DNA of 64,000 nt from Lysobacterales bacterium (GTDB lineage Bacteria; Pseudomonadota; Gammaproteobacteria; Xanthomonadales; SZUA-5): positions 91,691 to 155,690 of the forward strand of contig JALHMG010000005.1 of assembly GCA_022844135.1 (NCBI GenBank). The letters are read 5' to 3'. A program made the position numbers and the translations under genes. Of this stretch, positions 8,184-60,335 are shown one piece after another. Position 1 is the stretch's first letter. Each line of letters starts with the position of its first letter. The notes under the pieces are model-generated. The model searched no databases. It was not told the origin of the DNA and worked only from the letters and a program-made list of their open reading frames with translations.

Positions 8184-9926
8184 CTAAGCCAACGCCGCCT
8201 CGACGCGCTCGCACTCGGCCTTGAGTTTCCCCGGCGCGCGGGCGCCAAAACTCTCGAGGTAGCGTTTGATTTCGCCGAACTCGTTGCGCCAGCCGTCTTC
8301 ATCGACCGCGAGCAGCGAATCGAGCGCAGCGCCGATGTTGTCGAGGCCACGAAGGTCCAGATCGCTCGCATTCGGCAGCAAGCCGATCGGCGTGTCTTGC
8401 GCACCCACCTTGCCCTCGCAGCGCGCCAGAATCCATTGCAGCACGCGCAGGTTGTCGGAGAAGCCCGGCCACAGGAACTTGCCGTCGGTGCCTTTGCGGA
8501 ACCAGTTGACGTGATAGATGCGCGGCGGCCGGGTGAGCTTGTCGCCGACTTTCAGCCAATGCGTGAAGTAGTCGGCGAAGTTGTAGCCGCAGAAGGGTTT
8601 CATCGCCATCGAATCGCGGCGCACCACGCCCACAGCGCCAGCGGCCGCGGCAGTGGTTTCCGATGCCATCGATGCGCCGACGAGCACGCCGTGTTGCCAG
8701 TCGCGCGCCTCGAACACCAGCGGCACCAGCGATTCGCGACGCCCGCCGAAAATCAACGCCGAAATCGGCACTCCTGCGGGCTCATCGGCTTCCGGCGCAA
8801 AGCTTGGGCACTGGCGCATCGACACGGTAAAGCGCGAATTCGGGTGCGCTGCCGGGCCATTCTTCGGATCGTAATCGCGGCCCTGCCAGTCCTTGACCGG
8901 CACCGCATCGGACAGGCCTTCCCACCACGGCTGATTGTCGGCAGTCACCGCCACGTTGGTGAAAATCGCATCGCGATTGAGCATCTCCACCGCGTTGCGA
9001 TTGGTCTTGCGGCTGGTGCCGGGCGCTACGCCGAAGTAACCCGATTCGGGGTTGATGGCCCACAGTCGCCCGTCGTGACCCGGATGCAACCAGCAGATGT
9101 CGTCGCCCACCGTCCACACTTTCCAGCCGGCGTGCGATTGCGGCGGGATCAGCATCGCAAGATTGGTTTTGCCGCAGGCCGATGGGAACGCCGCAGCGAC
9201 GTAATGGCGCTCGCCCTGCGGATTCTCGATGCCGACGATCAGCATATGCTCGGCGAGCCAACCTTCCTGGCGCGCCTGCCAGCTGGCGATGCGCAGCGCG
9301 TGGCACTTTTTGCCCAACAGCGCATTGCCGCCGTAACCCGAGCCATAGCTCTTGATCATCAGCTCTTCGGGGAAATGCATGATGAAACGCCGCTCAGGAT
9401 CGAGCTCGCCGATCGAGTGCAGGCCACGCACGAACCGCCCTTCGCGCTCGATGCGCTTCAGCGCGGCTTCGCCCATCCGCGTCATGATGCGCATGTTGAC
9501 AACCACATACGGGCTGTCGGTGATCTCAACGCCGCAGCGTGCGAACGGCGAGTCGATCGGGCCCATGCAATACGGCACCACGTACAGCGTGCGCCCGCGC
9601 ATCGATCCGGTGAACAGCGCATCGATCTTGGCGTGCGCTTCCGTAGGCGCCATCCAGTGATTGTTCGGCCCGGCGTCGTCCTGATTTTCGCTGCAGACGA
9701 AGGTCAGATGCTCAACGCGCGCAACGTCGTTCGGGTGCGAACGATGCAGGTAACAATTGGGATGGGTCTGTGGGTTCAGCGGCAACAAATCCCCAAGCTC
9801 AACCATGCGTGCGACCAACGCATCGCGTTCAGCTTCTGAACCGTCGCACCAATGAATACGATCCGGTTTTGTCAGCGCGGCCACCTCGGCCACCCAAGTG
9901 TTCAGCGACACCAGTGAAGAAGACAT
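8184..9926 (-). CDS. pckG: GTP-dependent phosphoenolpyruvate carboxykinase
   Basis: 580 aa. GTP-type PEPCK motifs YGGNALLGKKC, FPSACGKTN and WMAPTEAH. Confidence 0.95.
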   Translation of the reverse strand: MSSSLVSLNTWVAEVAALTKPDRIHWCDGSEAERDALVARMVELGDLLPLNPQTHPNCYLHRSHPNDVARVEHLTFVCSENQDDAGPNNHWMAPTEAHAKIDALFTGSMRGRTLYVVPYCMGPIDSPFARCGVEITDSPYVVVNMRIMTRMGEAALKRIEREGRFVRGLHSIGELDPERRFIMHFPEELMIKSYGSGYGGNALLGKKCHALRIASWQARQEGWLAEHMLIVGIENPQGERHYVAAAFPSACGKTNLAMLIPPQSHAGWKVWTVGDDICWLHPGHDGRLWAINPESGYFGVAPGTSRKTNRNAVEMLNRDAIFTNVAVTADNQPWWEGLSDAVPVKDWQGRDYDPKNGPAAHPNSRFTVSMRQCPSFAPEADEPAGVPISALIFGGRRESLVPLVFEARDWQHGVLVGASMASETTAAAAGAVGVVRRDSMAMKPFCGYNFADYFTHWLKVGDKLTRPPRIYHVNWFRKGTDGKFLWPGFSDNLRVLQWILARCEGKVGAQDTPIGLLPNASDLDLRGLDNIGAALDSLLAVDEDGWRNEFGEIKRYLESFGARAPGKLKAECERVEAALA

Positions 9927-10229
9927 GACGATTTCCGAAAAATCAAAGACTTAGAGAAGATTGGCTTGGCCAATACCGCGGAACATAGCGGGGGATGGGG
10001 TTTCATGCAATCGAATGCAGGGCTTCCGGTCGCGTTGAGCCAACGGCGAGCCGACAAATGACAAATGTTCAATCTGATGGCGGCCGGCCCGCATGCTCAA
10101 GTTTGGTCTGCCGCACCTCGATTCGACTTGGAAACAAGGCGTGTTCGACGTCACGGCACGCTGCGAGCAACCACGCATTGGCCTCCTTTAGGCATACTCT
10201 TCACCCATCCATGACGCATGGGGTAGCGC

Positions 10230-12620
10230 ATGTTCGATATCGCAATTGTCGGCTCGGGCCCCGGCGGCATCAGTGCGGCAGCGCGGGCGGCTGAGTTGAA
10301 GGTGTCGCACATATTGCTGGAGGGCGCGCCGCACCTGTCCAACACCATCTATCGCTATCAGAAAGGCAAGCACGTGATGGCCGAGCCTGAGGCTCTGCCG
10401 TTACGCTCGCCGCTCAAGTTCCAGGCCGGTTCGCGCGAATCGATTCTGGAGAGTTGGGACCAGGATGTCGCCAAGCTCGGCGTCAACGTGCGTCACGGCG
10501 CAGAAGTCACGGCGATTAAGAAAACCGACGCCGGCTTTGATCTGTCGATCGGCCGCAGCGAGAAAATCCAGGCGAAGGCCGTGGTCCTCGGCATCGGCCT
10601 GCAGGGCAATATCCGCAAGCTCGGCGTGCCCGGCGAAGACGCGCCGTTTGTGCAATACACGCTCGACGATCCCGACGAATACGAAGGCGAGACGATCATT
10701 GTCGTCGGCGCTGGCGATGCGGCGATCGAGAACGCGGTGTCTCTGGCAAAACAAAACCAGGTGGTCGTCGTCAATCGCCGCGAGGAGTTCGCGCGCGCCA
10801 AGGAAGGCAATCTGCGCGCCATCCAGAAGGCCATCGAAGATGGCGTGATCGAGTGCTACTTTGGCTCGGCGCCTGAGCGCATCGACAAGCTCACGGTAGG
10901 CAAGAAGCCGGGCCGCATGATCTTGAACACGCCCAAGGGGCGCGCGCAGGTGTTGTGCGATCGCATCATCGCGCGACTTGGCGCCAATCCACCGCGAACC
11001 TTCGTCGAGGCTTGCGGCGTCAAGTTTCCGAACGACGATCCAGCGGCCGTGCCGGCGATCAGCGAGAAGTACGAGAGCAACGTGCCGGGTTTGTACATTG
11101 TCGGCGCGCTCGGCGGCTATCCGCTGATCAAGCAGGCGATGAACCAAGGTTATGAAGTCGTCGAGTACATCCTGGGTCGCAGCGTTGAGCCGGCGGATGA
11201 ACCGCTGCTGCGTGCGAAATTCGAATCGATGCCGGGCTTCAAGAGTGTCGGCGCCACATTGAAGAAGATTCAAGAGGCCGTGCCGCTGCTGGCCACGATT
11301 ACGCCGCTGCAATTGCGCGAGTTCATGATCGACTCTGCCTTGCGCGCGCCCAAATCTGGCGAAGTGATTTTCAAACGCAACGATTACACCAACAGTTTTT
11401 ATTGCCTCGTCGATGGCCATGTCGAAGTGTTGATGGACGACGCCGGCGATAAGCGCATTGTGCTCAACCCAGGCGAGTTTTTTGGCGAAATGAGCTTGAT
11501 TTCCGGGCGCCGCCGTACTGCCACGGTGGTCGCTGGAAAGGGCTGCGTGCTGATCGAAACGCCGCGCCGATCGATGAAGAAACTGATCAACTCGGTCGAG
11601 GCGGTGAAGAAGATGATCGACCAGGTCTTCGTCGAACGCGCGATCCGCGCGCGCTTTGGCGAGGAGGCCACGGCGGTGCAGATTCGCGATGTGGTCAAAG
11701 GCGCAACGTTGCAGCGATTCAAGGCCGGCGAGGTGTTGTTCCGCGAGGGCGATGATGGCGATTGCCTGCATCTGGTGCGCGTCGGCTCGCTGACGATCTC
11801 AAGGCAGATCGCCGGACGCGATGTGGTGCTGAGTTATGTGCCGGCCGGCAATTACGTCGGCGAAATGGCGCTGCTGGGCGGCGGCAAACGCTCGGCGACC
11901 GCGAAAGCTGCGATCGCTACCGAGACCATTCGCGTCGAGCGCGAAGCCTTCCGCAAGCTGCTGGCGCAGAACCCGATGCTGCGAATGAAATTGGCTAACG
12001 AGGTCAAACAGCGCACTGCGGAAAACATCACCACGCAAGCGGGCGCCTCCAGCGGCGATGTGATTTCGTTTTTGATCGGCCAGGGCGTGGGCGAAGCCAC
12101 GGACGTGCTGCTGATCGACGAATCGCTGTGCGTACGCTGCGACAACTGCGAGAAGGCCTGTGCCGAGACCCATGGCGGCACCTCGCGCCTGGATCGCGAA
12201 GCCGGTCCCACCTTCGCCAATGTGCATGTGCCGACGAGCTGCCGCCATTGCGAGCATCCGCATTGCATGAAGGATTGCCCACCCGACGCCATCCATCGGG
12301 CGCCGAATGGCGAGGTGTTCATTGCCGACAACTGCATCGGCTGCGGCAATTGCGAGCGCAACTGTCCGTACGGCGTGATCCACATGGCGGCCAAGCCAAA
12401 GAAGAAACCGGGCCTGCTGCAATGGCTGCTATTCGGCGCTGGCCCCGGCCCAGGCGAGTCGCCGTACGACCCGGAAAGCCACGAGAAAAAAGCCGTCAAG
12501 TGCGATATGTGCAAGGACATCAAAGGCGGCGCCGCGTGCGTACGCGCCTGTCCGACGGGCGCGGCGATCCGAATCAGTCCCGAGCAATTACCGGAGTATG
12601 CGTATGCGCGGGCGCCGTGA
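10230..12620 (+). CDS. fusion protein: TrxR-like flavoprotein (no redox CxxC) + 2 cNMP-binding domains + 4x[4Fe-4S] ferredoxin module
   Basis: IAIVGSGPGG (FAD) and IIVVGAGDAAIE (NAD(P)H). FGEMSLISGRRRTATV and VGEMALLGGGKRSATA (cNMP-binding). CVRCDNCEKAC, CRHCEHPHCMKDCP, CIGCGNCERNCP and CDMC...CVRACP (Fe-S). Confidence 0.85.
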   Translation: MFDIAIVGSGPGGISAAARAAELKVSHILLEGAPHLSNTIYRYQKGKHVMAEPEALPLRSPLKFQAGSRESILESWDQDVAKLGVNVRHGAEVTAIKKTDAGFDLSIGRSEKIQAKAVVLGIGLQGNIRKLGVPGEDAPFVQYTLDDPDEYEGETIIVVGAGDAAIENAVSLAKQNQVVVVNRREEFARAKEGNLRAIQKAIEDGVIECYFGSAPERIDKLTVGKKPGRMILNTPKGRAQVLCDRIIARLGANPPRTFVEACGVKFPNDDPAAVPAISEKYESNVPGLYIVGALGGYPLIKQAMNQGYEVVEYILGRSVEPADEPLLRAKFESMPGFKSVGATLKKIQEAVPLLATITPLQLREFMIDSALRAPKSGEVIFKRNDYTNSFYCLVDGHVEVLMDDAGDKRIVLNPGEFFGEMSLISGRRRTATVVAGKGCVLIETPRRSMKKLINSVEAVKKMIDQVFVERAIRARFGEEATAVQIRDVVKGATLQRFKAGEVLFREGDDGDCLHLVRVGSLTISRQIAGRDVVLSYVPAGNYVGEMALLGGGKRSATAKAAIATETIRVEREAFRKLLAQNPMLRMKLANEVKQRTAENITTQAGASSGDVISFLIGQGVGEATDVLLIDESLCVRCDNCEKACAETHGGTSRLDREAGPTFANVHVPTSCRHCEHPHCMKDCPPDAIHRAPNGEVFIADNCIGCGNCERNCPYGVIHMAAKPKKKPGLLQWLLFGAGPGPGESPYDPESHEKKAVKCDMCKDIKGGAACVRACPTGAAIRISPEQLPEYAYARAP

Positions 12621-12750
12621 GGGTGTGAGCTGGAGCGAGGCACGGGGCATGGACAGCAACAGCGTGCATGCCTTCTGGCAGAGTGTGTCCAGTCCCGCGC
12701 CGCGCGCTTGCACTCCCGTGTCGCGCTTCCGGGGTCGCTCCATTGTCTCG

Positions 12751-12852
12751 CGTCCCGTGCCCCACGCCCCGCAGTTGCTGTCCCGTGCCACTTGCCTCAC
12801 GCTCCGTTCCTGCTGTCGCGTGCCCCGCGCCCCGTGCCCCGTGCCCCGCTCC
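12751..12852. repeat. GTGCCCC-type heptamer arrays in the spacer between 10230-12620 and 12914-13807
   Basis: cgtcccgtgccccacgccccgcag (12751-12774), gtcccgtgccac (12780-12791) and gtgccccgcgccccgtgccccgtgccccgct (12820-12850). An opposing gaggcacggggcatgg lies at 12638-12653. Confidence 0.8.
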
Positions 12853-12913
12853 TGTTGTTGTTCCCCCAATCCAGTCGGTCCAGGCATCGCACTCACTCAA
12901 ATGCAGCCGCACC

Positions 12914-13807
12914 ATGCATGACTCCATTCTCAACTTCCGCAGCTATCGGTATCTGTGGGTATCGATCCTGCTGAGCTTAGGTTCGCTGACCGCGTACCTG
13001 TGGCACGATCCGATCGGCGTACCTAACGGTGGCTCCTGGCTGGGCTACACGCTCGGCACAATCGGCGCGGTGTTGATTCTCTGGCTGCTCTGGTTCGGCA
13101 TCCGCAAACGGCGCTACGGTCGTGCCATCGGCACAGCGCGCGGCTGGTTGAGTGCGCATGTGTATCTGGGCACTTCGCTGATCCTGATCAGCTTATTGCA
13201 TTCGGGTTTCCAGGTTGGCTGGAACATCCACACCCTGGCATTGGTCTTGATGTTCCTGGTGATTTTCAGCGGCTTTTTCGGTGTGTACGCGTACCTGCGT
13301 TACCCGGCGCTGATGACGCGCAACCGCGCCAGCACCACGCGCGAGGCGATGGTGGCAGAGATACGCGAACTGGACGCGCAAGCCTTGCAACTGGCAGACA
13401 AGGTCGACAAGTCGGTACACGATGCGATTCTGCGCTCGATCCAGAACACCCGGCTCGGCGGCGGTTTGTGGGCGCAATTGACTGCCAAAGACGACTCGGG
13501 CCAGGCACTGACGCGACTTAAGGAAGCGGTCACGCAGGCGACCACCGCCGACAAGCAGCACCGATCTGGGCAGACGATGGTGGTGATGGTGGATTTTCTC
13601 GCCCATCAAGCCAACGATGCGCAGAGCGATACCTTGCGCCGCCTCATCGATCTGGTGTCGCGCAAACGCGCGCTCGCGAGCCGCGTGGCGCGCGATATCC
13701 AACTGCAGGCGCTGATGGAAATCTGGCTGTATTTCCATGTGCCGCTGTCGCTGGCGCTACTGGGCGCGCTGACGGCGCATATCCTGTCCGTGTTCTTCTA
13801 CTGGTGA
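12914..13807 (+). CDS. 5-TM membrane protein with a di-heme-b-like His signature
   Basis: 297 aa from ATG 12914. The upstream part of the listed ORF is Pro/Cys-rich translation of the repeats. His82/His96 and His275/His289 each lie 14 positions apart inside predicted TM helices. Confidence 0.65.
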   Translation: MHDSILNFRSYRYLWVSILLSLGSLTAYLWHDPIGVPNGGSWLGYTLGTIGAVLILWLLWFGIRKRRYGRAIGTARGWLSAHVYLGTSLILISLLHSGFQVGWNIHTLALVLMFLVIFSGFFGVYAYLRYPALMTRNRASTTREAMVAEIRELDAQALQLADKVDKSVHDAILRSIQNTRLGGGLWAQLTAKDDSGQALTRLKEAVTQATTADKQHRSGQTMVVMVDFLAHQANDAQSDTLRRLIDLVSRKRALASRVARDIQLQALMEIWLYFHVPLSLALLGALTAHILSVFFYW

Positions 13808-13817
13808 GGGCGCAGCG

Positions 13818-15488
13818 ATGAAATGGCACATCCGCCGCGTCATCAAAAAGGGCAAAGGCAGCGTCTCGTACGAGGAAGAAATCCACTTCGGCGATACGCT
13901 GACGATCGGCCGCGCCGCCGATCAGGCGATCTTCATCAACGATTTGCGCGCGGCCTTGGAACATGCCACGGTCACTGTGCTCGGCAACGGCCGTTACCGC
14001 GTCGAGGCGCTGGTCGCCTCTGGCATTCGTCTCGACGGCAAGCTGGAGCAAAATGCGACGGCCACCTCGGGCAGTCAGATCGAAGTCGGTAACTCGCGCA
14101 TCACGCTGATCGAACCGCCCAAGGACTTCGAAGCTGCCGTCGAAGTGGCGCTGATCGACAAGACCGAAGTTGCGGCGCGCGAAGAGTCCGAAGCCTTGCC
14201 GATGACGCTCGCCGAGGCCGGCATCGGCAAGCGCCGGGCAGCGTGGATTGGCTTGATCTCGATGCTGATCGTCGGGTTGGCGATCCCCATCGTCGCGCAC
14301 TTCGTGCCGACACTGCGCATCGCAACGGCTGGCATACCGATGGTAGGTATGAATGCCTGGGATACCGGGCATTTGCACGACGCCCACCACACGATGGCCG
14401 GCGATTGCCAGGCTTGCCATGGCTCGCCGTTCAGCGTCGTCGAAGACGCGAAATGTGTGGTGTGCCACGCCGCCACGCCAGCACACGCCGACCCCGCTGA
14501 GTTTCCGCTGCCCGATATCGCGCAGGCGCGTTGCGCGCACTGCCATCGCGATCACAATGGCAACGAAGGCTTGGTGCGCAACGATCAAGTCCTGTGCTCG
14601 GATTGCCACCGCAATCTCACCGAGCGCATTCCGAACCAAACGCTGCTGGCCAATGTTGAGGACTTCGGCAACGCACACCCGCAGTTCAGTGTACTGCTGC
14701 CGGCATGGGCCGAGGACGGCAGCTTCGCCCCGGTGCGAACGAGCATGGACAAAACGCCGCTCATCGAGACCTCGGGCCTCAAGTTCCCGCACGCAACGCA
14801 TTTGCGCGAACGCGGCGTCACCAGTCCCGAAGGTACGGTGAATATGGTTTGCGCCGACTGTCACGTCGCGGAACCCGGTGGCGCGCTGATCGCGCCGATC
14901 GATTTTGAGCAGCACTGCCAGAGCTGCCATCGCCTCGATTTCGATCTGCGGGTGCCGGATCGGCAAGTGCCGCATGCGGACGTCGCCGCCGTGCAATACA
15001 TGCTCGATGAGTTCTACGCCAAAGTCGCGCTGGAAGGCGGATACGATGATGTAAGCGCACCAGTCATCGTCCGCCAGCGCCGTCGTCCTGGCCAACCGCC
15101 GCCAACGCCGGAGGAGCGCCGCGAGGCACTGGCATGGGCGCAACAGAAGGCCACGCAAACCACCGATACGCTGTTTTCGGGCCGCGCCTGCGGCGTCTGC
15201 CACAGCGTCAGCAAAGACCCCGCAGCCGTGCGCGGCGGCTGGCAAGTGGCGCCGGTGCGCGTCGCCGGCCAGTGGTACGAAAAATCGCGCTTTACGCACA
15301 ACGCGCACGTGACCATGGACTGCGAGGCCTGCCATATCGCCAGCCAATCGCAATCGAGTGCGGACTTGCTGATTCCGGAGATCACCAACTGCCGCCAGTG
15401 CCATGCCGGCGAACACGACAAGGAACTATTGCCGAGTACGTGTATTGCCTGTCATGGGTTCCATCAGTCTGAGCATTTGCTGAGGTGA
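13818..15488 (+). CDS. single-pass membrane protein: N-terminal FHA-like domain + periplasmic decaheme c-type cytochrome
   Basis: Ten CxxCH motifs (CQACH, CVVCH, CAHCH, CSDCH, CADCH, CQSCH, CGVCH, CEACH, CRQCH, CIACH). One TM helix (AAWIGLISMLIVGLAIPIVAHFV). N-terminus LTIGRAADQAIFIND...GIRLDG...IEVGNSRITL resembles a degenerate FHA fold. Starts 10 nt after the previous gene. Confidence 0.85.
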   Translation: MKWHIRRVIKKGKGSVSYEEEIHFGDTLTIGRAADQAIFINDLRAALEHATVTVLGNGRYRVEALVASGIRLDGKLEQNATATSGSQIEVGNSRITLIEPPKDFEAAVEVALIDKTEVAAREESEALPMTLAEAGIGKRRAAWIGLISMLIVGLAIPIVAHFVPTLRIATAGIPMVGMNAWDTGHLHDAHHTMAGDCQACHGSPFSVVEDAKCVVCHAATPAHADPAEFPLPDIAQARCAHCHRDHNGNEGLVRNDQVLCSDCHRNLTERIPNQTLLANVEDFGNAHPQFSVLLPAWAEDGSFAPVRTSMDKTPLIETSGLKFPHATHLRERGVTSPEGTVNMVCADCHVAEPGGALIAPIDFEQHCQSCHRLDFDLRVPDRQVPHADVAAVQYMLDEFYAKVALEGGYDDVSAPVIVRQRRRPGQPPPTPEERREALAWAQQKATQTTDTLFSGRACGVCHSVSKDPAAVRGGWQVAPVRVAGQWYEKSRFTHNAHVTMDCEACHIASQSQSSADLLIPEITNCRQCHAGEHDKELLPSTCIACHGFHQSEHLLR

Positions 15489-15604
15489 TCGTGGATCGCT
15501 CTGCGCCAAGGTTTTTGGGCGTGAGCGCACCGCATCGAAGCGCAAGGAGATTGCGGGTGAGGTGGCAGAACTGACGTGGCCTTCGCGAACGCACAATCGC
15601 GACG

Positions 15605-17524
15605 TCAGTGCAGTGCCTTCTCCTTTGGCGCCGGCACGCTAACCCTTACGCGCGTCCCGCTTGCATCGCTATCGACCGTACACGTGCCGCCGCTCGCTGC
15701 GGCGCGTTGTTGCATATTGCGCAATCCATGTCCGGCTGGACGACTGGCATCGATGCCCGAACCATTGTCGCTCAGAACGAACTCGAAACGGCCCTGATCT
15801 TCGGCGTAGCTGGCGATCAGGTCCAGGCGAGTCGCTTTGCCGTGCGCAAGCGCGTTGGTGACCGCCTCTTGCAGCACGCGCAAAACGTTCAACAGCTGTC
15901 GCGGCGCGAGGGTGCCCGATGCGTTGGCGGTGTGATCGGCGACGTTCAGCGACACGCCCGTACCCGCCAGTTGCTGCCGCAATCGGCGTTCGAACGCCAC
16001 CAGGGTCATCGATACCCCATCTTCGGCGCTATCGAGCGAGTCGACGATCAAGCGCAAATCGTTGAGGCTATTGCTGATGCCAACACTCAGCGCCGCCTGA
16101 TCGATCGATCCGGACTCAGCCCTCAGCTTCAAACTCATCAGCTCGCCGCCGATGCCATCGTGCATATCGCGCACCAGGCGCTGGCGCTCTTCCAGCACCG
16201 CCGCCTGGCGCTGGATCGCCTCGCGCTGTCGAAAACTATCGGCCAACTCCGCCTCGCGCGCCGCCAAAGCCTGTGCCAGCCGCTGATTGGCCTGATCCAC
16301 CACCTCCCGCGCGCGCGCCGCTTCGCGGGCCAGCGCCAGCAACATCGACAGTCCCAAGAATGTGCCGAGTATCGGTCCCCAGGTCAGCGTCATCGGCAGA
16401 GTTGCGTCGAAGGGCGAATGCAGATCGACCAGCGAACCGATGCGGTCCAGGGAGATAGCGCCGAAGGACAGCGCCAGCACGCTGCGCTCGAAGCGCCGGG
16501 CCGACTGCGACTGGACCACAGCGCGCGCCAGCAGAAAGGTGGAGACCAGCGGCGCGATCGCCGCAAATCCGTACGGCACTTCCACCAGCATGGTAACAAC
16601 ACGATCGACATCGAGCGGCGCCACCGCAAACACAACCGCATGCGCCGCGAAGATCGCCACCCAAACCCAACGCATACGTATCGGCAACGCGATCGCACTA
16701 TCGTGTGCAGCGAAGGCGAATACCGCCAGCCCGATCGCCAGGTTCAGCCCACTCCAGACGTACACGAACTGCGAAAACGTCATCTCGAAGGGCGGCCTGA
16801 AACTCATGAAATAGGTAACGGCGGCATTCAACGCGATGATCAGCATCAGCGCGCGGATGCGCGGCCGTTCCGCCACCGGCCAGTTGATCAACGCCATCAG
16901 CAGCAGTACAAACATCTGCACGCCGATGCTGATCAAACCAAGGTCGATGACGAAAAAGCTCCGCCAGCGATAAGCGTCTATCAACTCGTCCGCGAGGCCC
17001 ACAGCGAACGGACTCAGCGCCGTGTCGACACCGTACAGAGATTTATGAATCTCGAGTCGATTGGTTCCGACGATCAGGCTATCGATCGGCATCGGGTAAA
17101 ACGCCGGTTCGCTGGTCAGCATGCCTTCGAACCTTGGAATGCTCTTGGCGGAACGGATGACCGTGCCGTTGACGCGGATTTCCTGCGTCTGCTCCTGCAA
17201 GCTGAAGTACAGCCCGAGCGCCCGATCATCATCCGCTGCGCGTTCGAAAGGAACCTCGAACACGATACGCTCGGCACCTTCGACGACGTCGACCACATAG
17301 CCTTCGAGACCGACACGCCGCACCGACCCGCCTGCGATCTCGTTGCCTTTTGCATCGAACAGGCGATACGCAACGGAGTCGCGCTGATCCATACCGTCCG
17401 GCAGCGCGATGCGCTCAGCGATGTGCACCGCCGGCAGGAACATCGCCAGCCAAAAGAGCCACCACATTGCCGCGCGCATCCAGCTTCCCATGGACCGTTG
17501 TTGTGCCGATGTCGACATCATCAT
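15605..17524 (-). CDS. multi-TM sensor histidine kinase (HisKA_3/NarX-type)
   Basis: Periplasmic N-domain, about 7 TM helices, H-box RDMHDGIGGEL and HATPase_c (DNGSGI, GHGLRNM). Confidence 0.85.
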   Translation of the reverse strand: MMMSTSAQQRSMGSWMRAAMWWLFWLAMFLPAVHIAERIALPDGMDQRDSVAYRLFDAKGNEIAGGSVRRVGLEGYVVDVVEGAERIVFEVPFERAADDDRALGLYFSLQEQTQEIRVNGTVIRSAKSIPRFEGMLTSEPAFYPMPIDSLIVGTNRLEIHKSLYGVDTALSPFAVGLADELIDAYRWRSFFVIDLGLISIGVQMFVLLLMALINWPVAERPRIRALMLIIALNAAVTYFMSFRPPFEMTFSQFVYVWSGLNLAIGLAVFAFAAHDSAIALPIRMRWVWVAIFAAHAVVFAVAPLDVDRVVTMLVEVPYGFAAIAPLVSTFLLARAVVQSQSARRFERSVLALSFGAISLDRIGSLVDLHSPFDATLPMTLTWGPILGTFLGLSMLLALAREAARAREVVDQANQRLAQALAAREAELADSFRQREAIQRQAAVLEERQRLVRDMHDGIGGELMSLKLRAESGSIDQAALSVGISNSLNDLRLIVDSLDSAEDGVSMTLVAFERRLRQQLAGTGVSLNVADHTANASGTLAPRQLLNVLRVLQEAVTNALAHGKATRLDLIASYAEDQGRFEFVLSDNGSGIDASRPAGHGLRNMQQRAAASGGTCTVDSDASGTRVRVSVPAPKEKALH

Positions 17525-17615
17525 GTCCCAACAATATGGGATAGCGCCTCACATGGGTGTGGGATGCTGGCGATTGTTATCGTCGCAATAGTTGCCGAAC
17601 TCATCGGACCGTCGC

Positions 17616-18254
17616 ATGACCAAGACTGTCGCCATCGTCGAAGACAATCTCGCGGTCTGCGAGTCCGTGCAGCGCAGCCTCGCGAGCAGCAGCGACTTTA
17701 CGCTCGCATGGATGGCGCACGATCTCAAGCAAGCGCGCGCAGCGATGACGCGGCCCACCGATATTCTGCTGCTGGATCTCGGTCTGCCCGACGGCCGCGG
17801 AACCGATCTCATCAAACCGCTGGGTCGTTTACGCCCGGTAGTGGTGGTGTTCACGCTATTCGGCGATGAAACCAGCGTCATCGACGCCATCGAAGCCGGC
17901 GTCGACGGCTACGTACTCAAAGGCGCCGACACTGCCGAGTTGCTCGATGCCTTGCGCGCGGCCGCCGCGGGCGACTCGCCGATCTCACCCGCTGTCGCCG
18001 GATTTCTGTTGCGCCGCCTGCGGCAACGCGAACGCCAGAACAAGGGCAACCCGATGAACGAACTGACCCCGCGCGAACGCGACGTACTGGAAACCCTCGC
18101 CCGCGGCCACTCCTACCGCGAAGCCGCCAACATTCTCGGCATGCAAACCAACACCCTCGCCCACCACGTCAAGAACCTCTACCCCAAACTCGCGGCCACC
18201 TCGCGCTCGGAGGCGGTGTTCAATGCGGTACAGCAGGGTCTGATAAAGCTTTGA
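17616..18254 (+). CDS. NarL/LuxR-family response regulator
   Basis: REC domain (ILLLDLGLPDG, VVVFT, GYVLKG) plus LuxR HTH (LTPRERDVLETLARGHSYREAANILGMQTNTLAHHVKNLY). Divergent from the kinase. ATG 17616 preferred over TTG 17592. Confidence 0.85.
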   Translation: MTKTVAIVEDNLAVCESVQRSLASSSDFTLAWMAHDLKQARAAMTRPTDILLLDLGLPDGRGTDLIKPLGRLRPVVVVFTLFGDETSVIDAIEAGVDGYVLKGADTAELLDALRAAAAGDSPISPAVAGFLLRRLRQRERQNKGNPMNELTPRERDVLETLARGHSYREAANILGMQTNTLAHHVKNLYPKLAATSRSEAVFNAVQQGLIKL

Positions 18255-51263: not shown

Positions 51264-52286
51264 ATGCAAGTCCTGTTCATGCAGCCGGAGCGACGCGTGA
51301 AGATCGCCATTGTCCACAGCGACCGTCTGACGCGCGAGGCTATCCGCCGTGCTATTGGCGGCGACCATTCGCTCGTATGGGTTGCCACAGAAGGACGCGA
51401 ATTCGACAAACTGCGCCGTCGCGATCCACCGGATTTGATTTTGATCGAAGCTGCGATGGTCGATGCAAAAGCCATCGAGTCCCGCAGCGCCGGCCAGAAT
51501 TGGCTGGTGCTGGCCGGCGACGACAACGCCAAGGGCGTCTATGAGGCGCTCAGCGCTGGCGCACTCGGCCACGTCCCGCCGCCGCGCCTGGAACCGGACG
51601 GCCAGCTCACGGGTGCGCAGCGATTGATGAGTCGCATCCATCGACTGCAATCCCTGATCGGTGAGCCAGCCGCGCCGCGCGTCGCACCGCCGCCGGCCGG
51701 CAAGAGCGCTCTGCCGATTCCAGTCATCGGCATCGGCGCCTCCACCGGCGGCCCGCAAGCGCTGGCCCGCGTTCTCGCCGGGCTTCCCGCAGGGCTCAAT
51801 GCTGCGGTGATGATCGTGCAACACATCGACGCCGATTTCTCGACCGGTCTGGTGGAGTGGCTGGCGTCGCACTCGATACTGCCGGTGCAGCTCGCGCGCC
51901 GCGGCGACCTGATCGAACCGGGTCGCGTCTATCTGGCCGCCAACCAGGGGCATATGGTGCTTTTGCCGTCACAACAAATTGGATATCTCGCGCCTTTGAA
52001 GAACGATTTACACGTCCCCAGCGTCGACACCTTGTTTCAGTACCTCGCCGATCACCATCGACCGGCATCGGCCGCGGTGCTCACCGGCATGGGCAGCGAC
52101 GGTGCGCAGGGCCTGCTGAAGCTGCGCCATCGCGGCTGGTATACGATCGCCCAGGATGAGGCCAGCAGTGCCGTCTATGGCATGCCGCGCGCCGCCGCCG
52201 AATGCGGCGCGGCGGTGCAAGTACTGCCGCTCAGCGCCATCGGACAGAGCCTGGCGCGCCACGTCTCCGGAGCGATCAGCCGATGA
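51264..52286 (+). CDS. wspF: CheB-type methylesterase with divergent receiver domain, WspF-like
   Basis: Esterase domain (IGASTGGPQAL, VQHI, TGMGSDGAQG, DEASSAVYGMP). The start is uncertain: ATG 51264, ATG 51279, or GTG 51297 (which has GGAG 6 nt upstream). Confidence 0.85.
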   Translation: MQVLFMQPERRVKIAIVHSDRLTREAIRRAIGGDHSLVWVATEGREFDKLRRRDPPDLILIEAAMVDAKAIESRSAGQNWLVLAGDDNAKGVYEALSAGALGHVPPPRLEPDGQLTGAQRLMSRIHRLQSLIGEPAAPRVAPPPAGKSALPIPVIGIGASTGGPQALARVLAGLPAGLNAAVMIVQHIDADFSTGLVEWLASHSILPVQLARRGDLIEPGRVYLAANQGHMVLLPSQQIGYLAPLKNDLHVPSVDTLFQYLADHHRPASAAVLTGMGSDGAQGLLKLRHRGWYTIAQDEASSAVYGMPRAAAECGAAVQVLPLSAIGQSLARHVSGAISR

Positions 52287-53470
52287 GTGCCATACGCGTT
52301 CTCATGGTCGACGATCAGGCGATCATCCTCGCGGCGCTCAAGCAGATGCTGGCGCACGAACCGGACCTCGAACTGCGCGGCGTTTCCGACCCGCAGGCGG
52401 CGTTGCAGGCGGCGCTCGAGTTCGAGCCGGCAGTGATCCTGCAGGATCTGGTGATGGAGGGCCTCGATGGCCTGACGCTGCTCAAGCGCTATCGCGCCCA
52501 CCCGCAGCTCACTGATACGCCGGTGGTTATGTTGAGCGCCGCTGAGGAACCGGAAACCAAAGTCGAGGCGTTTCGCCTCGGCGCCAACGACTATGTCGTC
52601 AAGTTGCCGAGCGCGCTGGAGTTAGCGGCCCGCATCCGCTACCACGGTCGCAGTTATCACAACATGCGCCAGCGCGAATCGGCATTCAGGGCTTTGGTGG
52701 AAAGCCGCGCCGCGCTGGAGTTGCGCCAAGCCGAAATCGAAGCGCAAAAGGCGCAATTGGAAGCGCAAGCCAGGCAACTGGAACTGGTCAATCGCGAGCT
52801 GGCCGACAGTGCCCTTTCCGACACGCTCACCGGGTTGCGCAATCGCCGCTATTTGCGAGTTTATCTGGACGCCCCGCTGGGCGAGCTATCGCCGCCGAGC
52901 GGCGTCGATGAACGCCGCCGCATCATGTTGCGCGAGCGCGCCACGTTTTTCCTCTTCGACCTGGATCACTTCAAGCAGATCAACGACAAACATGGCCACG
53001 ACGCGGGCGATGCGGTGCTGGTCGAAGTGGCCGCGCGCTTGCGTCAGACGCTGCGCGAAGGCGATGCGACGATGCGCTGGGGCGGCGAGGAGTTCCTGAT
53101 CGTCGCTCGCGGCCTCAGCGACGAGGCCGCTGCCGTGCTCGCGCAGAGAATCATGCAGGCTGTGGCGGCGGTACCGATCGTTATTCCGCGCGGCCCGACA
53201 TTGCGCGTCACGGCATCCTTGGGGTTTGCGTCCTCGCCATGGTGGCGCGAGGAGCGAACCGAGGACATCAAGCATCAGCTCTCCATCGCGCTCGCCGACG
53301 CAGGGACTTATTTGTCCAAAACCGATGGCCGGAATCGGGCCGTGGGGATTTTGCCAGGACCTGACGAAAGCTTTAGCGAGCGCATCGATCGCATCAGCCT
53401 TGGCCCCGGATTGTTGCGCCAGGAAGATGGTCGCGGCGTTCGCCTGGTGAAGATCGTCGGGCCTTCGTGA
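52283..53470 (+). CDS. wspR: response regulator-diguanylate cyclase, WspR-like
   Basis: Canonical REC (VILQDLVMEGLDG, VVMLSA, DYVVKLP), coiled-coil linker and GGDEF domain (RWGGEEF with an RxxD-like I-site context). ATGA overlap with wspF. Confidence 0.9.
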   Translation: MSAIRVLMVDDQAIILAALKQMLAHEPDLELRGVSDPQAALQAALEFEPAVILQDLVMEGLDGLTLLKRYRAHPQLTDTPVVMLSAAEEPETKVEAFRLGANDYVVKLPSALELAARIRYHGRSYHNMRQRESAFRALVESRAALELRQAEIEAQKAQLEAQARQLELVNRELADSALSDTLTGLRNRRYLRVYLDAPLGELSPPSGVDERRRIMLRERATFFLFDLDHFKQINDKHGHDAGDAVLVEVAARLRQTLREGDATMRWGGEEFLIVARGLSDEAAAVLAQRIMQAVAAVPIVIPRGPTLRVTASLGFASSPWWREERTEDIKHQLSIALADAGTYLSKTDGRNRAVGILPGPDESFSERIDRISLGPGLLRQEDGRGVRLVKIVGPS

Positions 53471-54513: not shown

Positions 54514-55235
54514 TGCGGGATCGGAAACTGGCGCAGCGCGGCTTGGATCGCCTCATAACGCCGGGTCCACCACGCTGGCGCTCCCTCAGGCGGCGCGTAC
54601 TCGCGCACGCGAAAATCCACTGGTGCGATGACGATCGGCAGCGACTCCGCCGTGGCGCCGGCTGCCAGCACGAACAAATCCTCGGCCACATCGTTGCCCA
54701 TCGCCAGACATCCTATCGATGCCGTCGTGCCGTGAATCATGATGTCGCCGCCCAGGTTGTCGCGCTGTTCCGCCGCCGCAACCGCGCGATCGTCGGCGTT
54801 CGGATAGTTCACCCGAATCGACAGGTGATAGCGGCTGTTGGCGTTCAAGAACTCCGAGCGATACACGCCTTCTGGAACCTGCAAATCGCCCTGCCGCGTT
54901 TTTGGCCCCAAGCCGCCGCTCATGCCCAGGATCGGATAACTGAGGACTCGCTGCCAGGCGGAATCGGCAGACGCACGCGAATACACTTCGAGCACGCGTT
55001 CGTCCTTGAACGCAACAAAAGCCAGACGCTTGGGCGGATAGTCGATATTTGCCGCAGCGAATGCGCCAGCGACGCGCGTACGCACCAGCGCGCCGTATTG
55101 CGCGACGCGTTCTTCCACCGTGTAACCGCCATGCGCACGCGCCAGCGCCGAGCCGATAAGCGCTTCACCGCGATCGCTCATGCCAAAACCGGAAAGTAGG
55201 GCCAACGGAACCAGGGCGACCCAACGAAGCCACAT
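54510..55235 (-). CDS. L,D-transpeptidase (YkuD) family protein
   Basis: Signal peptide plus catalytic IMIHGTTASIGCLAM (H...GC). Confidence 0.8.
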   Translation of the reverse strand: MWLRWVALVPLALLSGFGMSDRGEALIGSALARAHGGYTVEERVAQYGALVRTRVAGAFAAANIDYPPKRLAFVAFKDERVLEVYSRASADSAWQRVLSYPILGMSGGLGPKTRQGDLQVPEGVYRSEFLNANSRYHLSIRVNYPNADDRAVAAAEQRDNLGGDIMIHGTTASIGCLAMGNDVAEDLFVLAAGATAESLPIVIAPVDFRVREYAPPEGAPAWWTRRYEAIQAALRQFPIPQ

Positions 55236-55245
55236 CGCCGCAAGC

Positions 55246-57255: not shown

Positions 57256-57369
57256 CACGACAGTTCCGCCACGCTCCGTGGAATTCGGAGACGTGCGTCG
57301 GGCTAGTGGCCGATCGCATCGCCGAACGGCCTGTCGCCGCGTGTGTGCGGCATTTTTCAGGAGGTTGAA

Positions 57370-58971
57370 ATGAGGTCTATTCGACTCGCTGTCGCGCTGG
57401 CGGCAGCGATTTCGCTGTGCGCGTGCGCGGCGTTGCCCCGCGAGCGCGGCTATGCCGATGCCCGGTCGCTGGTGAAGAGCGCCAGCGGCATACTCCCGCC
57501 GCCACCGCACCTGCTGGTGCCGGCGCCGATTCCAGATCGACCGGTGACTGCCGCCGACGCCGCGCGGCTGGCTTTGCTGCACCATCCGCGTGTGCGCAAG
57601 GCCTTCACCCAGATCGGTATGGCACGCGGCGCTTGGCAAGACGCGGCGCGCATCGGCAATCCGAGCTTTTCGTTCTTGAGCCTCGCTCCAGGCGGTGGCG
57701 ATAGCACGATTACCCGTGCGCTGGGGATCAGCCTGAGCGACGCCATCTTGATGCCGGCGCGCCGACGTCTCGCGACCGGAGAACTGAAGAGCGCGCAATG
57801 GCTAGCGGCAGCCGAACTCTTGGACCTGGCATACGACGCTGAGCGCGCGTGGTTCGAGGCTGCCGGCGCAGCGCAGATCGCTGCGATGCGCGCGCTGGTC
57901 GCGCGGGCGGCGAATGCGTCGGAAGCACTCGCTCAGCGCTTCTTCGATGCCGGCAATATCTCGCGCTTGGAACTTGAACTCGAGAGGGCGGCCGCGGCGC
58001 AGGCTCGAATCGATGCGATTGATGCGTCCGCGCATGCGCTGCGTACCCGAGCGACGCTGGCTGGCTTCATAGGCCAGCGCGCGAGCGGCCATTGGTCGAT
58101 AGCGAGTGCGCTGCCGGCGCCGCTCGCTGGCATCCCGGATGTAGACGCGCTGATGGAGCGGGCACTCGAACAGCGCCTCGACCTCCGCGCTGCGCGTCAG
58201 GCGCTGGCGCTTGCTGAAGATGCGCTCGACGTCACGCAGCGCTGGCGCTGGTTGGGCGCCGTCGAGATCGGCGCCGAGCGCGAGCGAGAATCCAGCGGCG
58301 AGCGATTGCGCGGACCCTCAGTGGCGGTCGAGTTGCCGCTCTTCAATCAGGGACAGGGCTCGATGGAACGGGCGCGGGCGGAACTGCACCAGGCGCGCGC
58401 ACTGCTCGACGGCCTTGCGCTCGGCGTGCACAACGAAGCGGCAACTGCCATCGATACGCTCAACGCGGCTCGGGACATTGCCGAACGCTACGCCAAGGAA
58501 CTGGTGCCACGTCGCGAGGCGATCGTCGCGCGCACCCAAGAGCAAGTGAACTTCATGCTGCTCGGCGTGTTCGACCTGCTGCTCGCCAAACAGCAGGAGT
58601 TCGACGCCTACCAGTCGTACCTGGAATCCGTGCGCGACTATTGGATAGCGCGCTCCGCGTTGCGCCGGGCGATCGGCGGGCGCTTGCCAGACGACGATGC
58701 CATTCCGACTGCAACGCTGGACGTCGACGCGATGCTGCCGACGTCGCCGAGTTCGAAATCACATCACGGCCGCGACGCTACTGAGATGAACCCGGAAGGC
58801 GATCCGCATAGGGGCCACGACAGGCCAGAAATCGAATCGGCAATCGATCCGCATGCCGCTCACGACAAGTTGCGGCCGAAACCCCGAGACCCGCCGAATG
58901 CCGATCGCTCATCCACAAATTCGTCGGAGAAAAAGCACGATAGAAATCCGCAGTCAGGAGAAGCGCCATGA
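57370..58971 (+). CDS. TolC/CusC-family outer-membrane efflux lipoprotein with His/Asp-rich C-terminal tail
   Basis: Lipobox LCAC. Two OEP repeats (coiled-coil rich). About 80-aa tail SKSHHGRD...DPHRGHD...DPHAAHD. CAGGAGG RBS before ATG 57370. Confidence 0.8.
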   Translation: MRSIRLAVALAAAISLCACAALPRERGYADARSLVKSASGILPPPPHLLVPAPIPDRPVTAADAARLALLHHPRVRKAFTQIGMARGAWQDAARIGNPSFSFLSLAPGGGDSTITRALGISLSDAILMPARRRLATGELKSAQWLAAAELLDLAYDAERAWFEAAGAAQIAAMRALVARAANASEALAQRFFDAGNISRLELELERAAAAQARIDAIDASAHALRTRATLAGFIGQRASGHWSIASALPAPLAGIPDVDALMERALEQRLDLRAARQALALAEDALDVTQRWRWLGAVEIGAERERESSGERLRGPSVAVELPLFNQGQGSMERARAELHQARALLDGLALGVHNEAATAIDTLNAARDIAERYAKELVPRREAIVARTQEQVNFMLLGVFDLLLAKQQEFDAYQSYLESVRDYWIARSALRRAIGGRLPDDDAIPTATLDVDAMLPTSPSSKSHHGRDATEMNPEGDPHRGHDRPEIESAIDPHAAHDKLRPKPRDPPNADRSSTNSSEKKHDRNPQSGEAP

Positions 58972-60335
58972 ACTCAACAAGACGACATTGGTTCCGCTGG
59001 GCGGGCTTGGGTGCACTCGCGCCGCTGGCGCTGGCCGCGCGCAGCGCGACTGCGCAAGCTGCAGCGGCCGGACCGACGTATTCGCCGCGCCAGCCCTATC
59101 GCCCGGTGCACACACCAAACGGCTGGACGCTGCCGCATCGGATGGTCGGCGGCGTCAAGGAGTTCCACCTCGTCGCCGAGGAAATCGAGCATGAGTTTGC
59201 ACCCGGCTGTCGTGCGAAATGCTGGGGCTACAACGGCACCACGCCCGGTCCTACGCTCGAAGCGGTCGAGGGCGATCATGTGCGCATCTACGTGACCAAT
59301 CGGCTGCCAGAACACACCAGCGTGCACTGGCACGGCATCTTGCTGCCGAGCGGCATGGATGGCGTCGGTGGGTTGTCGCAACCGCACATCCAGCCGGGCG
59401 AAACCTACGCCTACGAGTTCACGCTGCGCCAGCATGGTACGCACATGTACCACCCCCACGCCGACGAGATGGTGCAACTGGCGCTGGGGATGATGGGCAT
59501 GTTCATCATCCACCCGCAGGCGGGCGAGGAGATGCCGCTCGATCGCGACTATGCCCTGCTGCTGCACAACTTCGCGCTACACCCTGGCACGTATCGCCCA
59601 GACCCGTCGGTGATGCAGGACTTCGACCTGTGGACGATGAACAGCAAAGTGTTCCCGGCGATCGCGCCGCTGGTGGCCAGAAGCGGCGAGCGCGTGCGCA
59701 TACGCGTGGGCAACTTATCGATGTGGAATCACCCGATCCATATGCATGGGCCGAAGTTCGTCGTCACCGGGGGCGACGGCGGGCGCTGGCCCAGGCAACT
59801 CTGGCGACCTGAAGTCACCGAGATCGTCGGTGTTGGACAGACGCGCGATCTGGAGTTCGTCGCCGAGCCGGGCGATTGGGCCCTGCACTGCCATATGTCT
59901 CATCACACGATGAATGCGATGGGACACGGGATTCCCAATACCCTCGGGGTGGATCAAACCGGCGTCGAAGCGGACATCCGCAAACTCCTGCCGGGTTACA
60001 TGGCGATGGGCCAGGGCGGTATGGCCGAACACCAGGAGCACACCGATTCCGGGCACATGAAGGGGCCGGAAAACACGCTGCCGATGATGATGGGCAAGGG
60101 CCCATTCGGAAATCTGGAAATGGGCGGCATGTTCACGGTGATCAAGGTGCGCGACGACTTGCCCGCCGACGACTTCCGCGACCCAGGCTGGTACCCGAAC
60201 CCCGAGGGCACGGTTGCGAACCGGGTCAGCAGCGATCCGGATTTCGGCACCCCCGCGCGCCGCGGTCCGCCGCCGGGGCCGTCGCCCACGCTCGAAGCCA
60301 AGCCGGTCGATCACTCCAAAATGAAGATGGGATAG
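58968..60335 (+). CDS. Tat-exported multicopper oxidase
   Basis: RRHWFRWAGLG Tat motif. Copper ligands HWHG, HPH, HPIHMHG and HCHMSHH. Met/His-rich insert (PGYMAMGQGGMAEHQEHTDSGHM). Confidence 0.85.
   Translation: MNSTRRHWFRWAGLGALAPLALAARSATAQAAAAGPTYSPRQPYRPVHTPNGWTLPHRMVGGVKEFHLVAEEIEHEFAPGCRAKCWGYNGTTPGPTLEAVEGDHVRIYVTNRLPEHTSVHWHGILLPSGMDGVGGLSQPHIQPGETYAYEFTLRQHGTHMYHPHADEMVQLALGMMGMFIIHPQAGEEMPLDRDYALLLHNFALHPGTYRPDPSVMQDFDLWTMNSKVFPAIAPLVARSGERVRIRVGNLSMWNHPIHMHGPKFVVTGGDGGRWPRQLWRPEVTEIVGVGQTRDLEFVAEPGDWALHCHMSHHTMNAMGHGIPNTLGVDQTGVEADIRKLLPGYMAMGQGGMAEHQEHTDSGHMKGPENTLPMMMGKGPFGNLEMGGMFTVIKVRDDLPADDFRDPGWYPNPEGTVANRVSSDPDFGTPARRGPPPGPSPTLEAKPVDHSKMKMG

Follow-up and report, generated by a model that had tools for sequence, protein, structure and literature searches.

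A conserved fusion of a cytoplasmic FHA-fold head to a periplasmic decahaem cytochrome, encoded beside a flavo-Fe-S protein and a five-helix membrane protein

The combination of a forkhead-associated (FHA) domain with a multihaem cytochrome has already been noticed in iron-oxidising bacteria. A pangenome study of the Gallionellaceae listed, without comment, MMseqs cluster 403 as 'Forkhead-associated protein' with 10 CXXCH motifs in 27 genomes (Table 1 in the 2023 paper, PMC10734462). The 'NHC' of Ferrigenium straubiae was described in a 2026 preprint as a membrane-associated nonahaem cytochrome c with a cytosolic FHA domain, encoded next to a [4Fe-4S] protein and a five-helix protein for which InterPro gave no match; its authors considered the combination previously unreported and its function unknown (bioRxiv 10.64898/2026.01.22.701106). 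Here we describe a gene at positions 13818–15488 of a 64-kb stretch of DNA (64,000 nucleotides, hereafter the window) from a Lysobacterales bacterium (assembly GCA_022844135.1, contig JALHMG010000005.1, positions 91,691–155,690). The gene encodes a decahaem c-type cytochrome with an FHA-fold head and lies downstream of genes for a flavo-Fe-S protein and a five-helix membrane protein. The fusion is genuine and conserved and has had no mechanistic explanation so far; the three proteins may form a new kind of transmembrane electron conduit.

Multihaem cytochromes that lead electrons from the inner membrane to periplasmic or extracellular carriers play a key role in metal respiration, iron oxidation and bioelectrochemistry. 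To our knowledge, the known inner-membrane entry points (CymA, ImcH, CbcL, NetBCD and similar proteins) are all quinone-dependent. The family considered here was found in soil and wastewater Xanthomonadales and in Granulosicoccaceae, and by architecture only, with sequences unaligned, in iron-oxidising Gallionellaceae. For the window, the analysis led to a revised annotation of the operon and defined three proteins that can be tested as one system.

Architecture and conservation of the cytochrome

The open reading frame (ORF) starts with ATG on the plus strand and encodes 556 amino acids (ORF list of the window). Its product consists of a cytoplasmic FHA-fold domain, one transmembrane (TM) helix and a periplasmic ten-haem c-type cytochrome. 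The ten CxxCH motifs begin at residues 197, 213, 239, 260, 345, 367, 458, 502, 525 and 542, all C-terminal to the sole TM helix, and were invariant across 58 close and 49 distant homologues. The haem domain matched the Pfam models Cytochrome_C7 (40.2 bits), Cytochrom_CIII (26.0 bits) and Paired_CXXCH_1 (21.9 bits), in each case above the cut-off. Covalent haem binding is predicted from the ten motifs in the exported domain, which identifies the product, at the sequence level, as a multihaem c-type cytochrome.

A single hydrophobic segment was detected (19-residue Kyte-Doolittle windows above 1.6 begin at residues 140–151), and the same 19-residue windows revealed no signal-peptide-like or hydrophobic stretch at the N-terminus. 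Since a KRR stretch is located on the N-terminal flank of the hydrophobic segment, the cytochrome can be classified as an N-in signal-anchor (type II) membrane protein. Residue R139, directly before the helix, was invariant among the aligned close and distant homologues. Haem is attached to c-type cytochromes in the periplasm, so that the C-terminal 390 residues should be periplasmic and the first ~139 residues cytoplasmic. The order of FHA head, one TM helix and periplasmic decahaem domain had been proposed in a first-pass annotation made from the letters of the window alone; it was borne out by the ORF, hydropathy, CxxCH count, Pfam matches and fold model.

Four independent lines of support identified the head as an FHA fold, modelled as an 11-strand beta-sandwich. 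The Pfam FHA model (PF00498) matched the head alone (residues 1–121) with 21.0 bits (E 4.7e-4) at a gathering score of 20.7 bits; the score was 20.6 bits for residues 1–135 and 17.4 bits for the whole cytochrome, and reached up to 30.1 bits in relatives. At E <= 0.01, the same model matched 27 of 30 heads of close homologues (best E 1.6e-6) and 36 of 49 distant members from an alignment with 29% identity (best E 8.6e-9). A hidden Markov model (HMM) of 30 heads retrieved practically only FHA domains from the PDB sequences, with GarA, OdhI, Mb1858, CT664 and FHA-2 of Rv1747 at E 3.4e-5 to 0.018. The AlphaFold2 model of residues 1–135 had a predicted local distance difference test (pLDDT) score of 83.8 and comprised eleven strands followed by a helix. 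The top 50 Foldseek matches of this model in the PDB were all FHA domains (probability 0.98–1.00, target-normalised TM-score <= 0.74). Profile scoring and the comparison of the predicted structure therefore both agreed with the FHA call of the first-pass annotation, the quoted peptides of which map to residues 28–97.

The fusion was conserved in homologues. A word-indexed search returned 613 clusters at 90% identity; of the best 120, 119 covered at least 99% of the query and 117 contained ten CxxCH motifs. When 1.84 billion cluster representatives (50% identity) were searched exhaustively with a profile, 4743 proteins reached E <= 1e-3, and no fewer than 1363 clusters reached E <= 1e-30. Among the best 150 representatives (down to E 1e-113), 145 had ten CxxCH motifs and 140 matched the head HMM. 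Searched by the word-indexed method on its own, the head profile retrieved just 38 short fragments from short contigs. In the Xanthomonadales set, the head was a little better conserved than the haem domain, with 59% as opposed to 55% identity to the window protein. The N-terminal domain thus matches FHA in the fold model and in the family profile, with a PF00498 score of its own on either side of the cut-off depending on the segment scored, and homologues generally carry it, the reverse of the two outcomes that had been named as speaking against the proposal, and the fusion is no accident of one lineage. The view that the fusion is unusual was correct with respect to the literature but not with respect to nature, given the at least 1363 clusters and the earlier notices of the combination (PMC10734462; bioRxiv 10.64898/2026.01.22.701106).

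Most of the ten representatives that did not match the head HMM were truncated records; all but P0217 and P0239 were inspected. One was a fragment of 363 amino acids with 9 CxxCH motifs (P0222), two were cut by contig ends (P0235 and P0250), one was located on a 3-kb contig (L088), one began within the head (P0255) and one had a visibly diverged head (P0270). In locus L087 (3650–7317), the flavo-Fe-S gene was split into three ORFs and its C-terminal end ran into the cytochrome at approximately residue 130, with both the five-helix gene and the FHA head missing, which probably reflects a deletion or a misassembly of long reads. The sole convincing natural headless variant among the inspected non-matchers was L089 (5070–7455), in which the cytochrome starts approximately 30 residues before the TM helix and 98 nucleotides past the stop codon of the five-helix gene.

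FHA domains are defined by a GR dipeptide, an SxxH motif and an NG motif (PMC3162421). In the HMM alignment to GarA, the head of the window protein retained GR (G31-R32); SxxH was changed to A46-L47-E48-H49, with His kept and Ser lost, and NG to S68-G69, with Gly kept and Asn lost. The first-pass annotation, according to which GR and His were kept and the SR and N-G residues lost, was right about GR, His, Ser and Asn but not about the Gly of NG. Motif frequencies were determined in the 140 head-bearing representatives of 50%-identity clusters. Gly and Arg of the GR dipeptide were present in 139 and 128 of them, His of SxxH in 112 and Gly of NG in 61. The position of the canonical Ser was occupied by Ala (74), Pro (15), Leu (10) or Ser (9), and that of the canonical Asn by Ala (50), Ser (23), Gly (18), Thr (10) or Asn (8). 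In approximately 94% of the representatives, the phosphate-binding Ser and Asn were replaced. As judged from these alignments, the family as a whole lost two of the three phosphopeptide-holding side chains and retained the Arg, so that the head, suspected to be degenerate in the window, is degenerate throughout the family.

A relative was encoded by 326 GTDB species representatives. The best 80 of these were almost all labelled Lysobacterales/Xanthomonadales and included Rhodanobacteraceae, Rudaea, Dokdonella, Tahibacter, Pseudomarimonas, Chiayiivirga and Ahniellaceae; one more distant representative was named Granulosicoccaceae. Copies 99% identical to the window cytochrome were present on seven contigs, and the nearest named relatives were metagenome-assembled genomes (MAGs) of Rhodanobacteraceae. 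One locus labelled Candidatus Saccharimonadia (L016, DATLNY010000254.1) contained a typical Xanthomonadales-type trio with 52–71% identity, and its label is probably a MAG binning error. Database labels on relatives included 'FHA domain-containing protein' and 'Cytochrome c3/FHA domain'. In a single representative (P0259, 694 amino acids; loci L085, 620–2704, and L086, 1107–3191), the FHA head was preceded by a PilZ domain, a receptor of cyclic di-GMP.

Partner genes and gene context

The flavo-Fe-S protein (Table 1) comprises a thioredoxin reductase/FNR-like FAD/NAD(P)H part (residues ~2–307), two cyclic nucleotide monophosphate (cNMP)-binding domains (~350–600) and a HycB-like C-terminal domain (~625–790) with four Cys clusters for [4Fe-4S]. 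Its Pfam matches were Pyr_redox_3/2, cNMP_binding (twice) and Fer4 families. Among PDB sequences it matched the regulatory domains of PKA/PKG, thioredoxin reductase/FNR and HycB. Identity was 71–87% in syntenic Xanthomonadales loci and 49–63% in distant loci.

The five-helix membrane protein (5-TM protein) starts at 12914 and not at the listed 12668. The longer ORF is an over-extension through the preceding spacer, since homologues are 297 amino acids long. The protein matched no Pfam or NCBIfam family, the sole Pfam match being Ni_hydr_CYTB at E 0.46, and Pfam annotations were absent from the top 120 among its 3264 database relatives. According to the secondary structure of a low-confidence AlphaFold2 model, it has five helices and a cytoplasmic helical loop of approximately 130 residues between helices 4 and 5. 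Helix 3 contains the His pair H82/H96 and helix 5 the pair H275/H289, in each case 14 residues apart (His-x13-His). Both pairs were invariant in 30 close sequences and in a set of 17 close and distant sequences, down to relatives with 39–50% identity. Helices B and D of mitochondrial cytochrome b have His pairs with the same spacing, and two helices, each with two His at this distance, are the pattern of transmembrane dihaem b proteins. From this His pattern alone, the 5-TM protein is a probable dihaem cytochrome b. Its stop codon is separated from the start of the cytochrome gene by a 10-nucleotide gap. Within the TM helix of the cytochrome, P157 and H161 (window 14286–14300) were invariant in close and distant homologues, and H161 could coordinate a haem where the cytochrome meets the 5-TM protein.

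A spacer of 293 nucleotides separates the stop codon of the flavo-Fe-S gene from the true start of the 5-TM gene; in several related loci it measures only ~5 nucleotides. The spacer contains degenerate, C-rich direct repeats of 35–42 nucleotides with matching inverted arms (Table 1). A promoter and terminator scan of positions 9900–15700 gave nothing above the shuffled expectation.

The gene neighbourhood was highly constant. The 49-sequence diverse alignment was too divergent for a locus scan, and a 9-sequence clade alignment was used instead. Where more than 1 kb was available upstream, the gene immediately before that of the cytochrome encoded the 5-TM protein in 75 of 76 loci from GTDB and in all 53 from metagenomes. 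The flavo-Fe-S gene was present in 70 of 80 GTDB loci. In the distant metagenome clade, it was found wherever the flank was long enough, in the order flavoFeS-TM5-cytochrome or TM5-cytochrome-...-C554-flavoFeS. The flanking genes of the window (PEP carboxykinase, histidine kinase and LuxR-type regulator) were found in none of the related loci, and the conserved unit is therefore the cluster itself.

Related loci usually contained further periplasmic genes. More than 2.5 kb downstream of the cytochrome gene was available in 68 of the related Xanthomonadales loci. In 65 of these, the cytochrome gene is followed by one for an HbpS-like secreted protein, and in most of them genes for a secreted protein of ~610 amino acids and then a ~1260-residue LVIVD-repeat protein with ten CxxCH motifs come next. 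A C554-like tetrahaem protein was also encoded downstream in other clades. The usual larger cluster (L081–L086, L098–L170 and most of L001–L080; for example L098, 9157–21734) comprised TM5, FHA-decahaem, HbpS-like (~620 amino acids), ~610-residue, LVIVD-decahaem, C554-like and flavo-Fe-S genes, in an order that was circularly permuted in some clades; as a whole it appears to be uncharacterised. A literature lead on 'LVIVD + multihaem' (Tenderiales Uet) was rejected, as it belongs to a different cluster.

None of the HbpS-like, ~610-residue, LVIVD-decahaem and C554-like genes was found in the full window, which is a reduced, trio-only version of the cluster. The trio-only state also occurred in L004, L023 (Tahibacter aquaticus DSM 21667), L028 and the metagenome loci L128–L133; because such loci recur, the trio is a separable core. 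In the window, the place of the downstream periplasmic genes is taken by a convergent histidine kinase gene, which begins 117 nucleotides after the cytochrome stop codon, and by the gene for the LuxR-type response regulator.

Two further groups of genes were noted in the window. The CheB methylesterase and response regulator-GGDEF genes look like the end of a Wsp-like chemosensory cyclic di-GMP cluster. The genes for an outer-membrane efflux protein and a multicopper oxidase, which overlap by 4 nucleotides, are probably a copper-handling operon.

Table 1. Features of the cytochrome locus and of other parts of the window (positions in the window)
Feature	Position	Strand	Evidence
Flavo-Fe-S protein, 796 amino acids, cytoplasmic; first operon gene	10230..12620	+	Pfam, PDB sequence matches, synteny
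5-TM membrane protein, 297 amino acids; second operon gene	12914..13807	+	Homologue length, invariant His, AlphaFold2 helices
FHA head of cytochrome, residues 1–112, cytoplasmic	13818..14153	+	Pfam, PDB profile search, AlphaFold2, Foldseek, motif counts
Linker, residues 113–139: amphipathic helix 115–125 and basic KRR before the membrane	14154..14234	+	AlphaFold2 secondary structure, flanking charges
Single TM helix, residues ~140–165	14235..14312	+	Hydropathy, invariant columns
Periplasmic decahaem c-type domain, residues 166–556 and stop codon; CxxCH motifs in residues 197–546	14313..15488	+	CxxCH count, Pfam
Spacer between flavo-Fe-S and 5-TM genes	12621..12913		
Direct repeats in spacer	12744..12858		
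Inverted arms in spacer	12632..12652 / 12832..12852		
Histidine kinase	15605..17524	-	
LuxR-type response regulator	17592..18254		
CheB methylesterase	51264..52286		
Response regulator-GGDEF protein	52202..53470		
Outer-membrane efflux protein	57343..58971		
Multicopper oxidase	58968..60335		

Possible role of the FHA head

We hypothesize, with a probability of roughly 45%, that the three proteins form a transmembrane electron conduit in which the FHA head is a phospho-independent docking or assembly module. Electrons would pass from NAD(P)H via FAD, four [4Fe-4S] clusters and two haems b to the ten haems c. The flavo-Fe-S protein would be the soluble cytoplasmic entry module and the cytochrome the periplasmic exit, and electron export to the periplasm would be favoured by the membrane potential. 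The head would tether to the membrane part either the flavo-Fe-S subunit or the cytoplasmic loop of the 5-TM protein, or both of them. Because the membrane subunits expose nothing else to the cytoplasm, head and loop are an obvious landing site for a soluble subunit. Docking onto the flavo-Fe-S protein, the product of the first gene of the same conserved operon, is plausible; the 5-TM protein, which the first-pass annotation had not singled out, is at least as good a candidate because it is the most constant neighbour. FHA domains with an incomplete motif set are known as phospho-independent structural elements on the cytoplasmic face of single-pass membrane proteins, namely MxiG/SctD (PMC3162421; bioRxiv 10.1101/2020.09.22.308627) and EssC (PMC4925161). 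In the SctD/MxiG proteins of type III secretion systems, the head has a comparable role at the base of the complex. The N-terminal domain of MxiG has an FHA fold without phosphothreonine binding (PMC3162421), and that of EssC is without the phosphothreonine motifs (PMC4925161). Of the 49 diverse members of the present family, 44 matched PF16697, the model of the YscD cytoplasmic domain of type III secretion systems, below its cut-off.

A direct wire from NAD(P)H to the periplasm would constitute a new electron route across the membrane, and the head would then be a rare instance in which a signalling fold is integrated in a redox complex. A more far-reaching version, in which the trio is a very widespread, uncharacterised and quinone-independent conduit from NAD(P)H to periplasmic or extracellular partners and the degenerate head couples or uncouples the soluble module depending on second messengers, is in our estimate somewhat unlikely; it would amount to a new class of respiratory or extracellular electron transfer module and a new use of the FHA fold.

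Several observations weigh against the docking hypothesis. The headless variant L089 still has the 5-TM gene upstream, and the head is therefore dispensable in at least one lineage. Only the G and R of the head were invariant across distant clades, which is weak conservation for a fixed protein interface. R32, the canonical phosphate-binding Arg, was kept in most representatives and a second Arg in the same apical loop, R44, in 88 of 140, which leaves room for an anion- or phospho-binding site in the head. The AlphaFold2 model of the 5-TM protein was poor (pLDDT 64.7, predicted TM-score 0.46). Foldseek found no match for it in the PDB at E < 0.1, with nothing below E 0.16, and a profile search of PDB sequences gave no meaningful match and no cytochrome b relative. 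The window is without the usual downstream periplasmic genes and thus without an obvious periplasmic acceptor or donor. The proposed docking itself is deduced from architecture and synteny.

The alternative that fares best, although we regard it as unlikely, is that the head has no partner in the operon and forms a cytochrome dimer or ring, or just sets the N-in orientation or the stability of the protein. The matches to the YscD model would fit with this, since bearers of that domain build rings, as would the weak conservation across clades outside the FHA core; in EssC, the FHA region could be assigned only to stability (PMC4925161). However, a signal anchor needs no folded domain of 110 residues, the head was kept in approximately 93% or more of the representatives over deep divergence, and the cytochrome is in strict synteny with two cytoplasm-facing partners. 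A bare helix suffices as the anchor in cytochromes of the NapC/NirT type.

A phospho-dependent switch is improbable. In this case, the head would bind phosphothreonine or phosphoserine on the flavo-Fe-S protein, the 5-TM loop or an unlinked regulator, and a Ser/Thr kinase and a PP2C phosphatase would toggle the conduit. The frequent retention of R32, H49 and R44 is consistent with it, as are the minorities with Ser (9 of 140) or Asn (8 of 140) at the canonical positions and the close sequence and structure matches to GarA and OdhI, which bind phosphothreonine. The window also encodes a PP2C-type phosphatase with a DGMGGH motif. The first-pass annotation had placed this gene at 55246–55944; the gene exists, but on the minus strand, at 55246–55956. 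It is 40 kb away from the cytochrome gene, and its motif was the only convincing DGMGGH in the 171 related loci and the window, with no PP2C linked in any related locus. An overlapping plus-strand ORF (55180–56022) had no Pfam match. A six-frame scan for the catalytic loop of Hanks kinases (H[RC]D[LIVMF]K[PSA].N, in ORFs with 200 or more amino acids), which is crude and silent on unlinked kinases, gave no match in 2.04 Mb comprising the 171 loci and the window, in line with the earlier remark that no Ser/Thr kinase is visible in the window. Single-pass membrane FHA heads without the Ser and Asn residues do not bind phosphothreonine (PMC3162421). Given the family-wide substitution of Ser and Asn and the lack of a Hanks motif, a dedicated phospho-switch is the less likely reading, and the link to phospho-signalling suggested in the first-pass annotation was not supported.

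We consider it no more probable that the head acts as a second-messenger gate, in which it contacts the tandem cNMP-binding domains and a cyclic nucleotide couples or uncouples the Fe-S chain and the membrane part, a form of regulatory docking. Two cNMP-binding domains were present in the flavo-Fe-S protein of every clade examined, and the PilZ domain ahead of the head in one clade suggests signal integration at the cytoplasmic face. On the other hand, nucleotide binding and the contact are predictions, and the PilZ fusion comes from one representative only. Very improbably, the head is a relic without present function in a lineage that has also lost the downstream periplasmic genes, as the absence from the window of the HbpS-like, ~610-residue and LVIVD-decahaem genes and the existence of a headless variant might suggest. 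Against this, every family-invariant residue of the head, the TM helix and the ten haem sites has been preserved, the protein was found in 99%-identical form on seven contigs and the trio-only arrangement recurs independently.

Comparison with known systems

The electron path of the proposed conduit resembles that of NarGHI, FdnGHI and NOX/ferric reductases, in which a cytoplasmic chain of flavin and Fe-S clusters feeds two stacked b haems on two helices and the acceptor lies across the membrane. The likeness is one of proposed mechanism and His spacing only, as no sequence or fold kinship of the 5-TM protein with these systems was detected. With the NapC/NirT family (CymA, NrfH) and with ImcH and CbcL of Geobacter, the cytochrome shares the arrangement of an inner-membrane-anchored multihaem c protein leading from the membrane to periplasmic carriers, and in CbcL a dihaem b module is likewise paired with a multihaem c domain. 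In contrast to the window cluster, which has its own NAD(P)H-flavo-Fe-S module, these proteins have no cytoplasmic domain and are fed by quinol. The NapC/NirT, CymA and NrfH models of Pfam and NCBIfam did not match the cytochrome, and the DmsE and GSU2203 decahaem models gave E > 0.1; membership in the NapC/NirT quinol dehydrogenases was rejected, as no family model matched.

The best profile and structure matches of the head were GarA and OdhI, actinobacterial regulators of 2-oxoglutarate dehydrogenase, glutamate dehydrogenase and glutamate synthase, in which an FHA domain directly binds redox or metabolic enzymes. Unlike the window head, to which they are approximately 20% identical, they are small, soluble and controlled by Ser/Thr kinases and have the full GR/SxxH/NG set. 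The SctD family (YscD, MxiG, PrgH and CdsD-CT664) has the same order of an N-terminal cytoplasmic FHA domain, a single TM helix and a periplasmic domain, and its FHA domain, without the full set of phosphothreonine motifs, is a phospho-independent docking site (PMC3162421; bioRxiv 10.1101/2020.09.22.308627). CT664 was among the sequence and fold matches of the window head. In contrast, SctD has ring-building domains in the periplasm in place of a cytochrome. The window head scored 15.7 bits against PF16697 and the relative P0161 25.3 bits, both below the gathering score of 33.2 bits (best E in the family 1.8e-9), and no secretion genes were found in the neighbourhood of the cytochrome. Membership in SctD/YscD was rejected on account of this score and the lack of a secretion-gene context.

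The closest described systems are NHC and MMseqs cluster 403, with a cytosolic FHA domain, one TM helix, 9–10 haems and adjacent genes for a 5-TM and a [4Fe-4S] protein. NHC differs in having nine haems rather than ten and in its host, a betaproteobacterial iron oxidiser as opposed to a Xanthomonadales-type heterotroph. The match is exact by architecture and neighbourhood only, with the sequences unaligned, and suggests homology. The fusion of FHA domain and multihaem cytochrome as such has been noticed before and is common, and the function suggested for it here is a proposal. The window gene is a further case, in a reduced gene context, of an already noticed but uncharacterised FHA-TM-multihaem family.

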